Both the position numbers and the translations under genes were made by a program. Source: a virus. Taken from it: a stretch of DNA of 11,130 nt. The notes under the pieces are model-generated. The model worked only from the letters and a program-made list of their open reading frames with translations. It made no database searches and was not told the origin of the DNA. The stretch is taken from UHGV virus genome UHGV-0057427; one strand, given 5' to 3'. Of the stretch, positions 1,687 through 10,356 are shown piece by piece (within the stretch, counting starts at the first letter, position 1; each line of letters opens with the position of its first letter).

Positions 1687-1887
1687 CTAATCTTTCGGAT
1701 AGATATCCGGTCTTAAGTCAGATTTCGTAATTGCACCTGACGTGCATTGCTCAAGTTTTTTAGCCAGCACAAAACTGGCTTTTTTATAGCCATTGAAAAC
1801 CAGCCGTAAGTAGCCAGGTGTTGAGCCAACTTTTCCGGCCAACTCGCCCTGCTGTTCTTTGGTTAAAGAGTCCCAATACGCTTTCAT
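1687..1887 (-). CDS. cro: Cro-like HTH transcriptional regulator (66 aa)
   Basis: The track ORF 1687-2190 has a long low-quality N-terminal extension; the internal ATG at 1887-1885 is preceded by GGAGGT at good spacing and gives MKAYWDSLTKEQQGELAGKVGSTPGYLRLVFNGYKKASFVLAKKLEQCTSGAITKSDLRPDIYPKD, a typical small Cro/YdaS-type HTH. It is divergent from the CI gene across an operator-containing intergenic region. Confidence 0.65.
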   Translation of the reverse strand: MKAYWDSLTKEQQGELAGKVGSTPGYLRLVFNGYKKASFVLAKKLEQCTSGAITKSDLRPDIYPKD

Positions 1888-1977: not shown

Positions 1978-2652
1978 ATGAAAACAATCCATGACATCCG
2001 GCGGTCTAACGCCAGAAAACTGAGAGATGGTGTTGGCGGGAATTCTTCCTTTGCCACTATGATTGATCGCGAGCCAACCCAGACCAGCAGGTTTATGGGA
2101 GATGGTGCTACTAAAAATATCGGTGACAGCATGGCACGACACATAGAAAAATGTTTCGACCTGCCTGTCGGATGGCTCGATCAAGAACACCAGACAACGA
2201 ACATCACAAAAAAACCTGATGTTTCAATCACTAATAAACAAATCACATTAGTCCCTGTCATATCATGGGTACAGGCCGGAGCATGGAAAGAAGTTGGATA
2301 TTCTGAGGTTGATTTGAGCACAGCAGAAACGTATCCCTGCCCTGTACCCTGTGGGGAAATGACTTATATCTTGCGGGTGATAGGTGATTCAATGATTGAT
2401 GAGTACCGCCCGGGAGACATGATTTTTGTCGATCCTGAAGTACCTGCCTGCCACGGTGACGACGTTATTGCATTGATGCACGATACAGGTGAAACCACCT
2501 TCAAAAGGTTGATAGAAGATGGGACACAGCGTTATCTCAAAGCGTTAAACCCAAACTGGCCTGAGCCTTACATTAAGATCAACGGTAATTGCTCTATAAT
2601 TGGAACTGTGATTTTCTCAGGAAAACCAAGAAGATACAAAATCAAAGCTTAA
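1978..2652 (+). CDS. cI: CI-type phage repressor, N-terminal HTH plus C-terminal S24 (LexA-like) autopeptidase domain, 224 aa
   Basis: C-terminal half aligns by eye with lambda CI (TFKRLIEDGTQRYLKALNPNWPEPYIKINGNCSIIGTVI versus lambda [36 protein letters not shown]), with the GDSM serine motif and a downstream Lys. No SD precedes the ATG at 1978, consistent with a leaderless PRM-type transcript. Confidence 0.88.
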   Translation: MKTIHDIRRSNARKLRDGVGGNSSFATMIDREPTQTSRFMGDGATKNIGDSMARHIEKCFDLPVGWLDQEHQTTNITKKPDVSITNKQITLVPVISWVQAGAWKEVGYSEVDLSTAETYPCPVPCGEMTYILRVIGDSMIDEYRPGDMIFVDPEVPACHGDDVIALMHDTGETTFKRLIEDGTQRYLKALNPNWPEPYIKINGNCSIIGTVIFSGKPRRYKIKA

Positions 2653-2666
2653 TCAATGTTTATGAA

Positions 2667-2687
2667 CCTGCTTCGGCAGGTTTTTTT
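2667..2687 (+). terminator. Rho-independent terminator after the CI gene
   Basis: CCTGC-ttcg-GCAGG hairpin (2667-2680, UUCG tetraloop) followed by seven T (2681-2687), 15 nt after the cI stop at 2650-2652. Confidence 0.8.
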
Positions 2688-2691
2688 ATAC

Positions 2692-2724
2692 TTGACAATG
2701 TACCTTTGAGATACATAATGTACC
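2692..2724 (+). promoter_or_regulatory. Sigma70-type promoter (TTGACA-16-CATAAT) overlapped by GTAC-core operator-like sites, reading rightward
   Basis: TTGACA at 2692-2697, CATAAT at 2714-2719. The palindrome ATGTA...TACAT (2698-2716) and a second AATGTACC (2717-2724) share the GTAC core of the cI/cro operators. No plus-strand ORF follows; the downstream gene is on the opposite strand. Confidence 0.45.
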
Positions 2725-2802
2725 CAAGAGAAACAACAAACAGGCAGGACGCCCACGAAGTATCCGCCTGGGGCATATGAAGTCCAGGATGATTCGTTAG
2801 CA

Positions 2803-2830
2803 ACAAAAAAGCGCCCTACAGGACGCTTAG
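2803..2830 (-). terminator. Rho-independent terminator of the minus-strand zinc-ribbon gene (possibly bidirectional)
   Basis: On the minus strand: AAGCGUCC-UGUA-GGGCGCUU stem-loop (one G-U pair) followed by UUUUGUUG, about 40 nt after the TAG stop at 2867-2869. Confidence 0.65.
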
Positions 2831-2866
2831 CTCTTTAACAATCTGGATATCCACAACAGTAGTAAT

Positions 2867-3358
2867 CTACAGATTGCCGTTAAGTTTTCTGGACAACTCC
2901 TCAATGGATGGAGGCGATACGTAATCCGGATTTTTATTCATCAGAAACTTATTTTCACAGTGGAGGCACCTGCTTTTATGAAAAAGCTCATCTTCGCTAA
3001 CCGGGAATGGTTGAAGTATCGATACTATCTTTTGTCCAAAACATTTTGGGCAAAGATGCATGGTTATGCTGCCACCGTTCACGATTACCTCCTTCGAGTA
3101 TACAAAAGTACCCGACTCAAGTTGGTTAAGGATATAGCCTTCCGTCTGAGCCTCAAAGTTTTCGAATTCTGCAATTTTAGCTTTGAGAGAAGCATTTATT
3201 TCTTGATAAGAGCCCACCAGTTCAACGAGAGACACGCATTCGCGCTGAATAGACGCAAGCTTTGAGTTTAGCTCACCAATAGCCGCATTTACTTCAGCTT
3301 GAGTTTTTGCCTCGTTCATTAGTTTTGCAATCTGGGCTGTTTCACGAATAGCCGTCAT
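2867..3358 (-). CDS. Coiled-coil protein with C-terminal CxxC...CxxC zinc ribbon (163 aa), unknown function
   Basis: The track ORF 2867-3646 begins with a P/R/G-rich artefactual extension. ATG at 3358-3356 gives MTAIRETAQIAKLMNEAKTQAEVNAAIGELNSKLASIQRE... (heptad-like helical N-half) then HLCPKC-x27-CLHC. A terminator follows. SD is weak and a GTG at 3382 is an alternative start. It sits in the slot between repressor and early-left operon, on the opposite strand to both. Confidence 0.55.
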   Translation of the reverse strand: MTAIRETAQIAKLMNEAKTQAEVNAAIGELNSKLASIQRECVSLVELVGSYQEINASLKAKIAEFENFEAQTEGYILNQLESGTFVYSKEVIVNGGSITMHLCPKCFGQKIVSILQPFPVSEDELFHKSRCLHCENKFLMNKNPDYVSPPSIEELSRKLNGNL

Positions 3359-3851
3359 TGCTGCCGTTAATTCAGCGATCACATTGAATACTCTTATTGT
3401 TGTTGGGGATATCCAGATTAACCGAATCCTTGTTGTTGGGGAATAACCAGGTCCACCTCGCCTGATGTGGCTAAAAGCAGGCACATAACAGCTAAGTATT
3501 TTCAACCAGAGAGAATCCTTAGCGTTGTGGTGAATGCGGCTCAGCGCACGCGGGTTAAGGTTGAGGCTGACAGTCGACCTTCTGTGGATACCCACCCGCC
3601 CGGGGTGCAACCTTCGCCAGGCACCGGGAGGCACCCGGCACCACAACTTTATGCTGTGTGTAGTCCTGGCGGTACCAGCTTGTACCCTTGCTTCCGGCTG
3701 GTACCGTCCTTTTTACAAAACAGAGAAGAGCATCACCGGACGACGGGCTCATAACCCAATCCATCCGGGCGGCTGCCACCGCAGGTGTTCTTCTCTGTTT
3801 TGTGGAGAAACCAACCGACCTTGCAGGGTCGATATGATGAGGAGCAGCAAA
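3359..3851. promoter_or_regulatory. Long GC-rich structured noncoding region between the divergent zinc-ribbon gene and the early operon (direct repeats, terminator-like hairpin, 15-bp long-range inverted repeat)
   Basis: Direct repeats ATTGTTGTTGGGGATATCCAG (3396-3416) and CTTGTTGTTGGGGAATAACCAG (3429-3450), with a third degenerate copy near 3512-3533. Hairpin GGTACCAGC (3671-3679) / GCTGGTACC (3697-3705) followed by T5 (3710-3714). Perfect 15-bp inverted repeat ACAAAACAGAGAAGA (3715-3729) / TCTTCTCTGTTTTGT (3789-3803) enclosing 59 nt. ORFs here translate to low-complexity P/G/R-rich sequence. Confidence 0.5.
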
Positions 3852-4214
3852 ATGGCTAGCGAACGCAGTACTGATGTGCAGGCATTTATCGGGGAGCTGG
3901 ACGGCGGCGTATTTGAAACCAAAATCGGCGCAGTTCTCAGTGAAGTCGCTTCCGGTGTGATGAACACGAAAACCAAAGGGAAGGTCTCACTCAATCTGGA
4001 AATCGAACCGTTTGATGAGAACCGTGTGAAAATCAAACACAAACTCTCATATGTTCGCCCGACTAACCGCGGGAAAATTTCCGAAGAAGACACCACCGAA
4101 ACGCCGATGTATGTCAATCGCGGTGGTCGCCTGACTATTCTGCAGGAAGACTATGGACAAATACTGACTCTTGCCGGTGAACCTGACGGAAAACTACGCG
4201 CAGCAGGTCATTAA
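3852..4214 (+). CDS. Phage early protein, 120 aa (yfdP-like by position and size), unknown function
   Basis: The track ORF 3534-4214 is extended through the noncoding region; ATG at 3852 has GAGGAG 7 nt upstream and gives MASERSTDVQAFIGELDGGVFETKIGAVLSEVASGVMNTK.... It is the first gene of a co-directional operon. Confidence 0.55.
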   Translation: MASERSTDVQAFIGELDGGVFETKIGAVLSEVASGVMNTKTKGKVSLNLEIEPFDENRVKIKHKLSYVRPTNRGKISEEDTTETPMYVNRGGRLTILQEDYGQILTLAGEPDGKLRAAGH

Positions 4215-4279
4215 TATCGTTCTTAATAAACTGATTATTTATCTCATCACTGAATATCTTTATATAGTGAGGACTTATT

Positions 4280-5104
4280 ATGTCTCAGAACTTAGACGCA
4301 ACCGCAATTAATCAAATCCATGCCCTTATTTCTGCTCAGGGTGTTAATGAAATTATCAGTAAGATTGGTGCCGATGCTGTGGCATTGCCTGAGAATTTCC
4401 GCATTCATGATCTGGAAAAATTTAATTTAAATCGCTTCCGTTTCCGTGGTGCGCTTTCCACTGCCAGCATCGATGACTTTACCCGTTATTCTAAAGATCT
4501 TGCAGATGAAGGCACCCGCTGCTTTATCGATGCTGATAATATGCGTGCCGTCAGTGTGCTTAACCTGGGTACTATTGATGAACCAGGTCACGCAGATAAC
4601 ACCGCCACTCTCAAACTGAAAAAGACAGCACCGTTCTCTGCCCTGTTGTCTGTTAACGGCGAGCGTAACTCCCAGAAGTCACTGGCAGAATGGATTGAAG
4701 ACTGGGCCGACTACCTTGTGGGCTTTGATGCTAATGGTGACGCCATTCAGGCAACCAAAGCGGCTGCGGCGATCCGTAAAATCACAATTGAAGCGAACCA
4801 GACCGCTGATTTTGAAGATAATGACTTCAGCGGCAAACGCTCCCTGATGGAGTCTGTCGAAGCGAAGACCAAAGACATTATGCCAGTGGCATTTGAATTT
4901 AAATGCGTTCCGTTTGAAGGTCTGAAAGAACGTCCGTTTAAATTACGCCTCAGCATTATCACTGGCGATCGTCCTGTACTGGTACTACGCATTATTCAGC
5001 TGGAAGCAGTGCAGGAGGAAATGGCTAACGAATTTCGTGATCTGCTTGTTGAGAAGTTCAAAGACAGCAAAGTAGAAACCTTTATTGGTACTTTCACCGC
5101 CTGA
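4280..5104 (+). CDS. yfdQ: YfdQ-like prophage protein (274 aa)
   Basis: ATG with GAGGA SD; length equals my recollection of K-12 CPS-53 YfdQ (274 aa) and it is followed by an HD-domain protein of YfdR size. The assignment is by size and synteny, not by alignment. Confidence 0.6.
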
Positions 5105-6659: not shown

Positions 6660-6983
6660 ACAGAACCAAATCTAATCTGAGTGTCCACTTTGTGGTGTGA
6701 GTTCAACCGATGGATGCAACACACAGGCGGAAGCTGAATGCATACTCACCTTTGTATCCCAGCGTGCTGTAACAATGAACAACAACACTCTGGTGATTTG
6801 ACGAGTGCTTAAATTCTTTCAGTAACAATGTATTGTTAGTTTACATAGTTGTAAATAAATATAGTTTATTGTAACATTTTGCTTGCAATGTCATTTAAGC
6901 AACCTGCTTACTTTGAGGGCTTTGATGATAGATGAATCCTTACTAAAATTATCATTTTTATGTATTGATTGAAGAGAAGATTA

Positions 6984-8984
6984 ATGATAGATAAATCAAT
7001 TACTAACCCTGGTTTCCATAAGCAGTTTCTATTAGAAAGGTTCAATGCTGATGAACAAAAAATATTAAAGTTATTATCAAAAGGATGGTATTTAACTAAT
7101 TCTGGCGAGGAGTTACAAATTGCTCAATCCAGATATAATTATTTTCTGATGAAACCTACACCAAAAACCTCTGAAATGTTCAACATTGAGAGAGAGATTG
7201 TTTGTGTATTTAGTAACTACGATTATTTTGAACCAAGAACATTAGATTTTTTCGAACAAGTTTACATGCGTCTTCCAAAGATGCGCACAGAGATGGTTTG
7301 TGCTGTTCTAATTGGCAGAGCTCCTGATACAGAAGAAAAGGTTGAACAGCTTCTTAAAGCTGATCCAGAGCATCAAATCATTGTACCTGTTAGTTATACT
7401 GAAATGATGTGCACAGATGCACTTCGAACACTTGAAAATAGATTTAGAAAACATTTCTACTCTCGAGATTTATTCTCCTTTTTATCTCCACTTAAAAAAG
7501 ATACATACTTTTTTGGTCGTTCAAATCTTATCAATGAGATTGTAAATCGATTCCAATCTGGGGAGCACACTAGCCTTTTTGGTCTTAGGAAAAGCGGAAA
7601 AACATCGATTGTATATGCAATCCAGAGACGTTTAGAGGCAAAAGGAGATTGTTTTGTATCATTAGATTGCGAAAGCCCATCAATACATGGCCTTCGCTGG
7701 TATGAATTACTTGAGAAACTAGTATTATTATATCTAGAGGCAAAAAAATCTAAAGTTAAAATTAACACATCTGGTAGATATGATGTTAAGAATGCTGCAG
7801 AGAGCTTTGAAACAGATATATTAAAAATTTACAACTCAAAAAAAACAGCAAGTGCTATATTTATTTTCGATGAAATTGAAAGAATTACACCGACAACGGG
7901 AGCTTCGATTCACTGGAGAGAAGAAACCGATTTTATATACTTTTGGCAGACAATGCGCGGTTTTTACCAGAAACATCCGTCTGTTTTCTGTTATATGTTA
8001 GTTGGCACAAACCCAAGTTGTATAGAAACACCATCATTATTGGGGCATGACAATCCAATTTATGCTTCAATTCAAAGCCAATATGTTCCTCCTTTTACTG
8101 TTGATCAAGTTAGTCAAATGGTTACACGTTTAGGTGATTATATGGGATTAAAATTTGACAATTTGATCACTGCAAAACTGGCAGAAGACTATGGCGGACA
8201 TCCATTTTTAATTCGCCAAGCTTGCAGCCAAATTAACAAGCTAATCCCTTCAGATAGACCTGTAACAATTGATAAATCTCTATATAATAAGTCTAAGATC
8301 GAGTTTAGGAACAACTCTCAGGAGTATTTAGCAATGATGATTCAGGTATTGTCGGAATGGTATCCTGATGAGTACGAAATGCTATGTTTACTCGCTCAAG
8401 GGGATATGGATAGTTTCAATTCATTTGCTCAGGATCATACATCTTATACTCGACATTTAATTGGCTATGGGCTTATTCAAAAAGGCACATCTGGTTATTC
8501 CTTTAACCTTGAGGAAATTTCTGATTTGCTTAGAAAAAAACATCAACATGAAAGATTAAACCTGACAGATGAAGAAAAGGTTCAAGAGATTTCAATTAGA
8601 AGAAATCGCTTAGAAAAAGGTTTGCGGATACTTGTCAGGAACACATTAAAAATATATAAGGGTTCAAATAAAGCAAAAGATGCTGTTATTTCTGCAGTTC
8701 CTGATGGGCGAAAATCAACATTACAAAATTACGATTTATCCAAACTATTAGATCCTGATTCATCTCCATTATTCTTTCTCGAATTAATTAACATAATTAC
8801 GAGAGAGTGGGTGATTTTTGATAATGTTTTTGGGATTAATAAAGAAAAAATAAAAATTATGCTTGAGGAAATTAACACTAAAGGACGTCCAGATGCACAT
8901 GCAAAATGTATTGACGAAGATGATTTTCAGCAATTAAGGCTTTACTTCAAAAAGCTTGAGTTAATACTTCAAGAGTGGTTATAA
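6984..8984 (+). CDS. P-loop NTPase with STAND/ORC-Cdc6-type AAA+ motif order, unknown N- and C-terminal domains (666 aa); candidate defense cargo
   Basis: Walker A GLRKSGKTS (nt 7581-7607) preceded by FFGRSNLINEIVNRF, Walker B IFIFDE (nt 7860-7874), sensor-1-like MLVGTN, GxP-like YGGHPFLIRQ. Codon usage is visibly AT-rich compared with neighbours. First ATG at 6984 with purine-rich SD; track start 6969 is TTG. Stands alone between xis-like and int. Confidence 0.8.
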   Translation: MIDKSITNPGFHKQFLLERFNADEQKILKLLSKGWYLTNSGEELQIAQSRYNYFLMKPTPKTSEMFNIEREIVCVFSNYDYFEPRTLDFFEQVYMRLPKMRTEMVCAVLIGRAPDTEEKVEQLLKADPEHQIIVPVSYTEMMCTDALRTLENRFRKHFYSRDLFSFLSPLKKDTYFFGRSNLINEIVNRFQSGEHTSLFGLRKSGKTSIVYAIQRRLEAKGDCFVSLDCESPSIHGLRWYELLEKLVLLYLEAKKSKVKINTSGRYDVKNAAESFETDILKIYNSKKTASAIFIFDEIERITPTTGASIHWREETDFIYFWQTMRGFYQKHPSVFCYMLVGTNPSCIETPSLLGHDNPIYASIQSQYVPPFTVDQVSQMVTRLGDYMGLKFDNLITAKLAEDYGGHPFLIRQACSQINKLIPSDRPVTIDKSLYNKSKIEFRNNSQEYLAMMIQVLSEWYPDEYEMLCLLAQGDMDSFNSFAQDHTSYTRHLIGYGLIQKGTSGYSFNLEEISDLLRKKHQHERLNLTDEEKVQEISIRRNRLEKGLRILVRNTLKIYKGSNKAKDAVISAVPDGRKSTLQNYDLSKLLDPDSSPLFFLELINIITREWVIFDNVFGINKEKIKIMLEEINTKGRPDAHAKCIDEDDFQQLRLYFKKLELILQEWL

Positions 8985-9081: not shown

Positions 9082-10356
9082 TTATCGTTCAAAGCGGGCT
9101 GTCAGATTTGATTGAGTCCTACTAAGCAAACTATCAGTTGTGTCCGCACTAGTACAAGTAATGATCGATTCAACTCTCTCCCACCATGCCTGGTAGGCTT
9201 TACGCTGTTCTTCTAGATAATCGCTCTTGTCATAAACTTGCCATACCCCTGGCAGTTTATGACCTAGCATTATTTCTGCAATATGAGGCGCAGTAAGATC
9301 AGAAAAGTTTGTTCGTGCTGTTCGCCTCAAATCATGAAGAGACCAATGAGGGAATTGATACCCCAAACGCCGCCATGCGTACTGCATTAAATTGTAAGGC
9401 AGCGACTGCAATGATGTCCGACCAACGGGTTCCCTGCTTCCTTCCTTAGTAAAAAGCATATCGGAACCATTATTCATAGAAATAGCGTACTTTATAAGCT
9501 CTTCAACCGGTTCAATAATGGGCCGCTTTAGCGGTTCGCCCGTTATCTCCCCAGTCTTATGTCGTTCTGGTGGTACAGTCCATACTTTATTAATGAAATC
9601 AAAATCGTCCACCCTGGCGGTAATTAGCTCTGAACTACGGCAGCCAAAATGCAGCAATAGTTTAATGAAGGCCCGGTATTTAGGAACCATTCGAGAACCA
9701 TCGATCGCAGCATAAAGGATTTTAATTTCATCATGTGTCAGAAACCGTTTCTTCTGACCTTTACGGATATCCATATCTTTACCCGTGATATCCGACAACG
9801 GGCGAGTTTCAATGAGCTTTCTCTTATACGCCCAGACATGGGCCTGCTTTGCGTTAATTAGCAATCGGTCTGCTATTGCTGGAGTCTTAGTGCTAAGAGG
9901 CTCCAGGACTTCTAACCAATCATGCAATGTAGCTGCATCGTGAGGGATATTCCCGATTTTAGAGAACAGGTGCAGCTCAAACGAGCGGAGTATCTGTTCA
10001 GAACCTTTTTTATTTTTTACACAATATGCTTCATACCAGGCACGGATCACAGACTCTACCGTCATGGCTTCAGTAGCTTTTCGTTTTTCAGCCTGCTTGA
10101 CCAATCGTGGATTACGGTTTGACTCGAGTTCACCACGGAGACGGGTAACTTCTTCTCTGGCCTCTTTTAATCCAGTTGCCGGGTAAGTTCCGATATCAAG
10201 ACGCTCACCTTTCCCTGCCCATTGATAACGATATTGGAACACTACGCGACCTTTCGGTGATACTCTGACAGACAGACCATCACGATCGGATTTAACCAAA
10301 ACCTTATCACGTTCCTTTCCAACGACTGAACGCAACCACGCATCAGACAGCGCCAT
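9082..10356 (-). CDS. int: Phage integrase, tyrosine recombinase (424 aa)
   Basis: N-terminal arm-binding-type region (GLSVRVSPKGRVVFQYRYQWAGKGERLDIGTYPATGLKEAREE), C-terminal catalytic signatures HDLRRTART and conserved Tyr region (LGHKLPGVWQVYDKSDY). It lies adjacent to the host junction. Confidence 0.9.
   Translation of the reverse strand: MALSDAWLRSVVGKERDKVLVKSDRDGLSVRVSPKGRVVFQYRYQWAGKGERLDIGTYPATGLKEAREEVTRLRGELESNRNPRLVKQAEKRKATEAMTVESVIRAWYEAYCVKNKKGSEQILRSFELHLFSKIGNIPHDAATLHDWLEVLEPLSTKTPAIADRLLINAKQAHVWAYKRKLIETRPLSDITGKDMDIRKGQKKRFLTHDEIKILYAAIDGSRMVPKYRAFIKLLLHFGCRSSELITARVDDFDFINKVWTVPPERHKTGEITGEPLKRPIIEPVEELIKYAISMNNGSDMLFTKEGSREPVGRTSLQSLPYNLMQYAWRRLGYQFPHWSLHDLRRTARTNFSDLTAPHIAEIMLGHKLPGVWQVYDKSDYLEEQRKAYQAWWERVESIITCTSADTTDSLLSRTQSNLTARFER

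Follow-up and report, generated by a model that had tools for sequence, protein, structure and literature searches.

A conserved multi-domain RNA leader between the repressor-controlled promoter and the first early-left gene of SfV/ST64B/CPS-53-type prophages

What lies between the repressor gene and the early-left genes (recombination, kil, xis/int) in the SfV/ST64B/CPS-53 group of phages, and how are these genes reached? Serotype-converting Shigella phages belong to this group, as do Stx2c and cdt phages and a Salmonella prophage; to our knowledge, its route to the early-left genes has not been worked out. We addressed the question in the UHGV virus genome UHGV-0057427, an 11,130-nt stretch of DNA (hereafter the window) that is an SfV/ST64B/CPS-53-type lambdoid prophage of E. 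coli, and in which a GC-rich gap precedes the first early-left gene, yfdP. We found that this gap belongs to a conserved, non-coding, multi-domain RNA leader on the plus strand, located between a repressor-controlled promoter and yfdP. The non-coding status of the leader, the boundaries of its modules, their conservation and covariation, and its strand and position are documented below, with the coordinates collected in Table 1. With moderate confidence, close to an even call, we favor the reading that 3453-3851 would act as an untranslated folded leader RNA that is gated by a terminator and carries a processing helix of the RNase III type.

Non-coding status and position of the gap

A first-pass annotation, made from the letters of the window, had pointed to a non-coding GC-rich gap ahead of the early genes. 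The gap is real and extends over 3383-3851, with the GTG at 3382 used here as the start of the minus-strand gene on its left, where the earlier reader had taken the ATG at 3358. Its GC content is 0.57 across 3451-3900, as compared with 0.42-0.45 on the flanks, and it holds stop-free stretches of up to 110 codons. In the closest genome compared (99.7% identity), PGAP calls a 'frameshifted hypothetical protein' over the equivalent of 3527-3837 (locus L001, 6228-6538). Alignment with ST64B (73% identity) revealed seven frame-breaking indels of 1-2 nt within the gap and substitutions spread evenly over the three codon phases (22/22/23), and frame-breaking indels were far more numerous in remoter homologues. 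Because of these indels and the even codon-phase distribution, we rejected the interpretation of the gap as a protein-coding gene or a pseudogene. The PGAP call is best explained as a spurious family of open reading frames (ORFs) within GC-rich structured DNA, and the annotation of a pseudogene over the RNA leader is probably a recurrent mis-annotation.

The position of the gap was assessed from the surrounding genes and from a scan for consensus sigma-70 promoters. According to the annotation of the 99.7%-identical genome, the gene order is ymfT (minus strand, cro-like), ymfK (plus strand, a LexA/CI-like repressor), the 171-amino-acid (aa) hypothetical gene (minus strand), the 'frameshifted hypothetical' pseudogene and yfdP, followed by yfdQ, yfdR, a phage protein, yfdT and the integrase. 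The only promoter-like site on either strand within 2600-4300 is that at 2692-2719, and the scan of the plus strand across 2720-3852 found no sigma-70-like or consensus promoter. The palindrome TGTACC-N5-GGTACA occurs at 1894, 1927 and 1944, between the cro-like and cI-like genes, and again at 2699 and 2719, where it overlaps the early-left promoter; the window contains nine matches compared with 2.8 expected, none of them within 3359-3851. The resulting order is cro-like gene, operators, cI-like gene, terminator, promoter with matching operators, gap, and yfdP to yfdT. Since the promoter is overlapped by cI/cro-type operators, 2692-2735 is the counterpart of lambda pL/OL, and the gap is therefore the leader of the early-left operon. 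The GGTACC and TTGTACC motifs, which the first-pass annotation had read as operator-like cores inside the gap, do not form the repressor palindrome there; we rejected them as operators, since they are part of a terminator stem (B2) that is kept in phages with differing immunity regions.

An unannotated gap of 0.6-1 kb between cI (or a small ORF just past cI) and the first early-left gene is also found in SfV, ST64B, phiNP, cdtI and phiES15. BLAST comparison against phages showed that the region is shared with functional phages, namely PhiR49_1 (98.9%), SfIV (97.6%) and SfV (96.5%), and a 601-nt query across the studied gap had matches in 3090 of 5426 complete E. coli genomes, covering at least 80% of the query length in 880. 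The earlier description of the gap as one single element did not survive these BLAST and pairwise comparisons, by which the gap appears as a mosaic of independently exchangeable modules. On sequence comparison, six modules can be distinguished in 3453-3851 (B0, B1, a GU-rich tract, B2, B3 and B4), which occur in differing combinations among phages.

The covarying long helix B3

B3 consists of an outer helix closing two hairpins, the first at 3736-3768 (with GGGCUCAUAACCC at 3745-3757) and the second at 3769-3782. The perfect 15-nt inverted repeat noted previously (3715-3729 / 3789-3803) is present and extends to 25 nt at 84%. The outer helix comprises 20 covarying bp, or 23 bp in the minimum-energy fold of the window, and can be extended onto the U-tract and GGAGA. 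The RNA 3712-3806 folds at -48.3 kcal/mol, as compared with a mean of -24.2 for shuffled sequences (z = -7.3), and none of 200 shuffles was as good.

To collect relatives, we searched viral contigs with an exact pattern from the interior of B3, which returned at least 120 loci, with 59-67 distinct variants among the matches listed. Covariation was evaluated in 34 distinct sequences, using the structure from the minimum-energy fold of the window. Predicted partners were paired in 95.4% of the cells, compared with 39-49% when the partners were shifted by 1-3 columns. Both sides had changed in 9 of the 34 pairs, including six in the 20-bp outer helix, and the covariation score of 0.178 (0.093 in shuffles) was reached by none of 500 shuffles. 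Two of the checks that had been suggested along with the first-pass annotation, RNA folding and covariation across relatives, came out in favor of a conserved structure.

The alignment also identifies the strand. One U·G pair is kept in 31 of the 34 sequences, and elsewhere G-C alternates with G·U. Because such pairs would be mismatched on the opposite strand, and because a covariance model built from the B3 alignment (R1) scores 115 bits on the plus strand against 43 on the minus strand, B3 is a plus-strand RNA. This bears on a different view of the locus, as a DNA-level element (a cruciform, or a site of recombination or replication) or as the remnant of a protein gene, for which the perfect 15-bp inverted repeat, the PGAP call and the long stop-free frames could be cited. 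The U·G and G·U pairs become C·A mismatches on the other strand, the position and orientation of the element are fixed relative to the terminator and the first gene, and a decayed gene is opposed by the frame-breaking indels and the lack of codon-phase bias described above. We consider this view extremely unlikely, and it is largely refuted already.

Since the viral-contig set had been gathered with a pattern from within B3, we obtained an independent sample by locating loci via the YfdP protein, one genome per species, and searching them with R1. B3 was found to end approximately 40 nt upstream of the yfdP homologue in 20 of the 28 usable loci, including those of Leclercia, Kosakonia, Enterobacter, Phytobacter, Mangrovibacter, Atlantibacter, Pseudocitrobacter, Superficieibacter and Scandinavium. 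It directly abuts the U-run of a terminator in 68 of 70 variants. The first gene downstream is yfdP-like, YfdR-like or RdgC-like, and this variety suggests that B3 acts at the level of the operon. In 838 kb of late-region loci of STnc100, a prophage small RNA (sRNA) family discussed below, B3 occurs just once, beside another early-left leader. A comparison of B3 with Rfam at E-values up to 10 returned no family. B3 is thus a covarying RNA motif with a wide distribution among enterobacterial prophages, and it is undescribed in Rfam 15 and the literature searched. In 56 of 72 variants, the outer helix has 20-26 bp with at most two interruptions, and B3 has the length of an RNase III site, which is at least 20 bp, or about two turns, of nearly uninterrupted double-stranded RNA.

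The layout persists even where the sequence of B3 does not. In Providencia, the region upstream of the yfdP homologue contains a terminator, ACA, a long helix of ~20-25 bp with a sequence unrelated to B3, and then GUGGAGUAA; at the two helix loci (L273, 2387-2500; L274, 2399-2500), where the helix is followed by GUGGAGUAAUAA, the B2-B3-B4 layout is matched. Because Providencia keeps this layout with unrelated sequence, the long helix looks like the constant feature. In B4, the segment between B3 and yfdP, GGAGAA is present in nearly all variants and is replaced by GGAGUAA in Providencia, and the small hairpin covaries, with stems GACC/GGUC, GGCGG/CCGCC and GGCUG/CAGCC. Among the loci without B3, that of Buttiauxella has GUGGAGAAC, the small hairpin and the gene immediately after B1, and a contig labelled Martelella alba has the ribosome-binding site right next to B1 and B2. 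The CPS-53 prophage of E. coli K-12 has lost the leader including B3 from the yfdO-yfdP spacer, where only the last ~25 nt before yfdP are shared, and K-12 datasets, among them the existing maps of RNase III cleavage, are uninformative for this reason. The K-12 spacer holds TCAGATTTTG repeats that have been reported as SrsR boxes between yfdO and yfdP (PMC9181523). We rejected the SrsR boxes as a part of the leader, because they lie in K-12-specific sequence.

Hairpin 1 of B3 resembles the anticodon stem-loop of the initiator tRNA. It reads GGG-CUCAUAA-CCC, and its 14-nt CGGGCUCAUAACCC recurs without change in the anticodon arm of E. coli metY (17/25 over the arm, counted by hand), which is also the only R1 match in the metY region. 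Moreover, no part of B3 is better conserved in the loci sampled through YfdP than the block ACGG(G)CUCAU..CCCAAUC, and the helix closing B1 is, as described below, the acceptor stem of a Phytobacter tRNA with an encoded CCA. On this basis B3, and perhaps B1, might be a tRNA-derived mimic, with hairpin 1 offered to a partner that binds tRNA-fMet, for instance the P site of the 30S subunit, IF3, MetRS or a toxin that cleaves tRNA-fMet, VapC being one example. However, ARAGORN reported no tRNA gene in the window and Rfam no tRNA match there even at E-values up to 10. The loop is CUCAUUC in Mangrovibacter, Atlantibacter and Phytobacter, in Kosakonia only two G-C pairs of the stem remain, Scandinavium has lost the loop, and the long helix of Providencia has no such hairpin; the resemblance was also noticed after the fact. 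We therefore regard a leader built of tRNA-derived modules, with B3 as a mimic or decoy for a tRNA-fMet-binding partner, as very improbable. If true, it would couple early phage expression to host translation initiation or to the defence state of the host.

Domain B1, terminator B2 and the flanking modules

The first-pass annotation had also described a hairpin followed by T5 directly upstream of the long inverted repeat. Hairpin and T-run are both present, with a stem of 13 bp, not 9. The B2 hairpin has a folding energy of -23.9 kcal/mol (z = -4.5), and a simple terminator scan passed over it only on account of its loop, which is longer than 8 nt. Of the 70 distinct sequences that precede B3, 69 contain a hairpin (median -21.4 kcal/mol) followed by a run of at least T4, with 24 different stem-base sequences, and ST64B and phiES15 have other hairpin sequences at this position. 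Such retention of the structure under replacement of the sequence is to be expected of a functional intrinsic terminator. The arrangement noticed earlier, a terminator-like hairpin and then a large closed stem, is accordingly conserved in both of its parts as structure. The GU-rich single strand just upstream of B2 is kept across genera, and also in ten loci where exact B1 motifs were not found. It could be the seed of an sRNA, an Hfq site or a boxC-like tract.

B1 is closed by the helix 3524-3532 / 3639-3647 (GUUGUGGUG / CACCACAAC), inside which follow GGUGAAU, a first hairpin, a long middle arm and the hairpin CCGGG-AGGCA-CCCGG (3624-3638), stacked on the 3' strand. The Rfam search that had been recommended with the first-pass annotation gave no match in the window at gathering thresholds. 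A cmscan by E-value, however, returned a full-length match to STnc100 (RF02076) over 3494-3717 that ends exactly at the U-run (35.0 bits, E = 6.8e-6), below the curated gathering cutoff of 47 bits. The corresponding scores are 39.5 bits in SfV, 40.6 in phiES15, 35.1 in ST64B and 36.9 in a Buttiauxella prophage (L252). We aligned the B1 cores of the window type and of the L266 type with true copies of STnc100. Common to all of them are a closing helix of 8 bp, GGU(G)AAU, a hairpin on the 5' side and, stacked on the 3' strand, a hairpin of 5 bp with the loop AGGCA; 7 of the 16 consensus pairs show compensatory changes (for example, CCGGG/CCCGG versus GGUGG/CCACC). By this alignment, B1 is a structural relative of the STnc100 core, and B1 and B2 together are a divergent relative of a known sRNA family.

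STnc100 is a late-region prophage sRNA, found for example 75 nt past stx2B (PMC12370729), and a link has been drawn between it and PasD, Hfq-bound sRNAs from prophages of E. coli (preprint 10.64898/2026.05.13.724894). B1 resembles STnc100/PasD in the closing helix, GGUGAAU, the first hairpin, a variable middle, CCGGGAGGCACCCGG on the 3' strand and a tail with a terminator. In contrast, the sequences of its closing helix and first hairpin differ, its middle arm is much longer and its score is below the cutoff. STnc100 and PasD lie in the late region, near Q, stx and lysis genes, whereas B1 lies in the early-left leader; B1 leads into B3, which true STnc100 loci lack.

These likenesses raise the question of whether B1 and B2 are an independent gene for a trans-acting, Hfq-dependent prophage sRNA, a divergent branch of STnc100/PasD carried as an accessory gene with its own promoter near B0, with B3 as an unrelated structure of the 5' untranslated region. 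In favor of such a gene, the STnc100 match, significant though sub-threshold, covers the full length and has its end precisely at the terminator, and compensatory changes accompany the common core fold. A conserved single-stranded tract with a U-tailed terminator, the usual Hfq module, persists where the B1 core is swapped, and STnc100 and PasD are Hfq-bound prophage sRNAs. In phiES15, B1 and the terminator occur without B3. Such a gene would nevertheless require a promoter, and the plus strand of 2720-3852 contains none of the sigma-70 type, nor is one visible in the alignments of B0. The score under the Rfam cutoff and the early-left context, in place of the late region, also speak against it. 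Complements of the GU-rich tract and of the B3 loop block were sought within the window, and nothing beyond these sites and chance-level matches turned up; moreover, no non-coding RNA has been reported at the site in ST64B lysogens. We think an independent sRNA gene possible, although on balance we doubt it.

The interior of B1 is more variable than its frame. The same closing helix is present in 114 of 140 loci that carry B3, while the interior consists of at least six unrelated fillings. In Phytobacter ursingii, the B1 slot is occupied exactly by a tRNA-Ile(AAU) with encoded CCA that was detected by ARAGORN (L262, 2222-2300; L267, 1186-1264). The helix GUUGUGG/CCGCAAC, which closes B1 at other loci, serves here as the acceptor stem, and a true tRNA was found in the slot there only. 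This suggests descent of B1 and STnc100-type domains from phage tRNA genes, or interchange with them. In a Kosakonia prophage (L269), B1 is absent and B2 and B3 are kept.

Directly 5' of the closing helix, 24 of 29 distinct flanks carry AGUGCKCU (position matrix; ~110 loci). The family consensus, AGUGCUCUYWNC, fits boxA, which has the form C/UGCUCUUUA; the copy in the window, AGAAUCCUUAGC, is the most degenerate of the family and a poor boxA. We also observed that a GUGCUCUUC...GUUGUGUGGAGAA string resembling this flank motif makes up the 3' arm of B3 and B4. The flank, B1 and the GU-rich tract could be read together as a nut- or put-like site of processive antitermination, at which RNA polymerase would be modified, by means of the Nus factors of the host and perhaps of a so far unknown phage protein, so as to read through B2 and later terminators. 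The recurrence of the motif AGUGCUCUYWNC at this position and the order of elements, which parallels that of the lambda nutL/N leader, would fit such a site, as would a strong terminator ahead of all early-left genes in a phage without an N-like first gene. The repressor and operators are HK022-like, and antitermination in HK022 is accomplished by RNA only (PMC9378689). Against this stand the poor boxA of the window, the lack of a 15-nt boxB, and HK022 putL and putR sequences and folds that are unlike those found here. The unrelated fillings of B1, one of them a tRNA, are hard to square with a specific polymerase-binding fold, and the Kosakonia prophage retains B2 and B3 without B1. Furthermore, antitermination by Nus factors and boxA is mainly directed against Rho and not against intrinsic terminators. 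We judge a processive antitermination site of this kind unlikely.

The 5' side of the gap has a different character. The imperfect direct repeats of the first-pass annotation exist, with copies at 3391-3408, 3424-3441 (to 3450) and 3513-3530 that are 72-78% identical, and they mark a cassette boundary outside the folded RNA core. A 26-nt inverted repeat (2840-2865 / 3394-3419; 85%, core GGATATCC), which had been missed earlier and has copy 1 as its right arm, flanks the minus-strand gene for the 171-aa protein, which is coiled-coil/zinc-ribbon-like. In SfV, orf33 and a terminator occupy the slot of 2799-3452; the Kosakonia prophage L269 has a matching start of the 171-aa gene and the repeats; and in Klebsiella and Hafnia phages the segment 3389-3491, containing repeats and B0, adjoins other inserted genes. 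The assignment of the direct repeats to a cassette boundary follows from this bracketing, the orf33 swap and the Kosakonia, Klebsiella and Hafnia contexts. From its sequence context, the 171-aa gene with its bracketing repeats looks like an exchangeable or invertible cassette, antisense to the early-left leader. Pfam contained no family for YfdP and nothing useful for the 171-aa protein. The direct repeats of the cassette also resemble the boxA-like flank motif. B0, which follows the repeats, is 97% identical to phiES15 over 38 nt and is found in Kosakonia and Mangrovibacter as well; it has no stable fold (z = -0.09).

Module A, a segment of ~65 nt directly after the promoter, is 86-98% identical in SfV, ST64B and phiNP despite their differing promoters and operators. 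Its hairpin shows two compensatory pairs in four sequences (stems CCUGG/CCAGG, CCGGU/ACCGG and CCCGG/CCGGG), and the module precedes B3 in 62 of 118 loci. At the other end of the window, a 671-aa ORF of low GC content (0.30-0.35; 6969-8984) has sub-threshold matches to STAND/AAA NTPase families and may, by these matches, be a defence gene. It is followed at 9082-10356 by a tyrosine integrase gene on the minus strand with an Arm-DNA-bind_3 domain. This end, with the 671-aa ORF and the integrase, is unlike the yfdT-intD-tRNA-Arg end of the closest genome.

Table 1. Positions of the leader modules and neighboring features in the window
Feature	Position	Strand	Description
cro-like gene	1687-1887	-	
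Repressor gene (ymfK, cI-like)	1978-2652	+	Own terminator at 2664-2690
Early-left promoter (predicted)	2692-2719 (with operators 2692-2735)	+	TTGACA-16-CATAAT; 11/12 consensus hexamer positions
Module A	2732-2798	+	Conserved leader segment directly after promoter; covarying hairpin CCUGG/CCAGG
171-aa gene	2867-3382	-	GTG start at 3382
Direct-repeat copies 1 and 2	3391-3450		TTGTTGTTGGGGAWAWCCAG; cassette boundary
B0	3453-3493	+	CCACC..CCUGAUGUGG.UAAAAGCAGGCACA; conserved segment
5' flank of B1	3512-3523	+	boxA-like; family consensus AGUGCUCUYWNC; window copy AGAAUCCUUAGC
B1	3524-3647	+	Multi-branch (four-way-junction) domain, like STnc100 core
GU-rich single strand	3648-3667	+	UGCUGUGUGUAGUC at 3652-3665; just 5' of terminator
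B2	3668-3714	+	Intrinsic terminator; 13-bp stem 3668-3680 / 3696-3708; U5 3710-3714
B3	3715-3803	+	Outer helix 3715-3734 / 3784-3803, closing two hairpins
B4	3804-3851	+	GGAGAAAC at 3804-3811; small hairpin 3816-3831; Shine-Dalgarno GAGGAG 3839-3844
yfdP	3852-4214	+	ATG at 3852

Proposed mechanism and known systems

The idea of a structured leader or non-coding RNA, put forward in the first-pass annotation, holds in its core: the segment is folded, conserved and in part related to STnc100. Its details (the repeats, the operator cores, a single element) do not. In the mechanism we propose, inactivation of the repressor would allow transcription from the CI-controlled promoter, running antisense through the inserted gene. 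The transcript would then make B1, the GU-rich single strand and B2, in this order. Polymerases stopping at B2 would release a terminated, sRNA-like leader, composed of a structured domain, a single-stranded tract and a U-tailed terminator, and those reading through would continue into the B3 helix, GGAGAAAC, the small hairpin and the first early gene. Hence, B2 would gate or insulate the early-left genes, from yfdP through xis/int, and the B3 helix would be a site of double-strand-specific processing or stability, of the RNase III type, that separates the leader from the mRNA. The transcription start, the efficiency of termination, read-through and cleavage are inferred from the features of the leader. 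Candidates for read-through at B2 are module A or the boxA-like motif together with B1.

Several observations weigh against this scheme. We found no N-like gene, as neither SfV Orf33 nor the 171-aa protein of the window is arginine-rich, and no similarity to HK022 put in module A or in B1-B3. Nor was an alternative antiterminator pairing found, and the attenuator suggested by the first-pass annotation is unsupported for that reason. Module A is the best-placed candidate for a cis-acting antiterminator, yet it occurs in those 62 of 118 loci only. The promoter itself is a predicted one, assigned solely by the consensus scan. As for B3, the recognition of sites by RNase III is poorly predictable from sequence, and the conservation of its sequence (ACGGGCUCAUAACCCAAUC) goes beyond the needs of an RNase III site, which hints at a further function. 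Finally, a transcriptome survey of ST64B lysogens mentioned no abundant non-coding RNA at the site; this silence is weak evidence against a constitutive sRNA and is compatible with expression from a repressed promoter.

By this analysis, the serotype-converting Shigella phages, the Stx2c and cdt phages and the Salmonella prophage of the SfV/ST64B/CPS-53 group all carry a conserved folded leader of a few hundred nt with a built-in terminator ahead of their early-left genes, and these phages without N may control the genes through RNA. The analysis also defines B3 as a covarying motif without an Rfam family, and ties B1 to the STnc100/PasD sRNAs and, via one lineage, to tRNA genes. It provides concrete sites at which the control of prophage induction, and possibly sRNA production, can be addressed in pathogenic E. 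coli, Shigella and Salmonella.

Among known systems, the production of a short RNA by a terminator within a leader, with read-through into the downstream genes, has precedents in phages. IsrK of Gifsy-1 is an sRNA generated by termination inside a phage operon leader (PMC4825925), and StxS arises by termination inside the pR' leader of Stx phages (cited in PMC13502914). The leader described here is alike in that, as predicted from its sequence, it would yield a short RNA at its terminator and carry the downstream genes by read-through; it differs in having no sequence relationship to either, and neither isrK (RF01394) nor C4 (RF01695) of Rfam matched the window. Both families do match SfV, but across the immunity region from the gap, on the cro side, inside orf37, which is annotated 'immunity region' (C4 with 82 bits and isrK with 64 bits; L002, 1226-1414), and isrK was also found in ST64B and phage cdtI (L003, 21-97; L006, 26-102). 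Termination-based immunity in SfV, reportedly described by Roberts et al. in 2007 (cited in PMC3475682), was rejected as an account of this locus, as it corresponds to the matches in orf37. HnrS, a 66-nt sRNA (PMC13502914), was likewise rejected as a relative, being an unrelated sRNA of the late region.

The likeness to HK022 put lies in the phage type, with HK022-like repressor and operators and no N, and in module A, which occupies the position of putL after the promoter. With a phage of this type and without N, an RNA-only route past the terminators would be needed. In contrast to this similarity of context, putL and putR share only a GGAUGA hexamer with module A and fold differently, and B1-B3 are ~800 nt away from the promoter.

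Lambda passes its early terminators by means of N acting at nut sites, and HK022 does so by means of put RNA. In the lambda N leader, nutL is followed by an RNase III hairpin before N. Like that leader, the one described here is located between the early-left promoter and the first early gene and contains, in order, a motif that is boxA-like in its family consensus, structure, a GU-rich tract and a long helix near the ribosome-binding site. Unlike it, the leader has no N gene, no 15-nt boxB and no sequence similarity to lambda, and an efficient-looking terminator lies inside it; judged as a nut region of the lambda type, it shows neither a 15-nt boxB with a GNRA-like pentaloop nor an arginine-rich N as the first early-left gene. 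The metY-rimP-nusA leader of E. coli is a further parallel, with a tRNA, terminators and an RNase III hairpin ahead of its first ORF.

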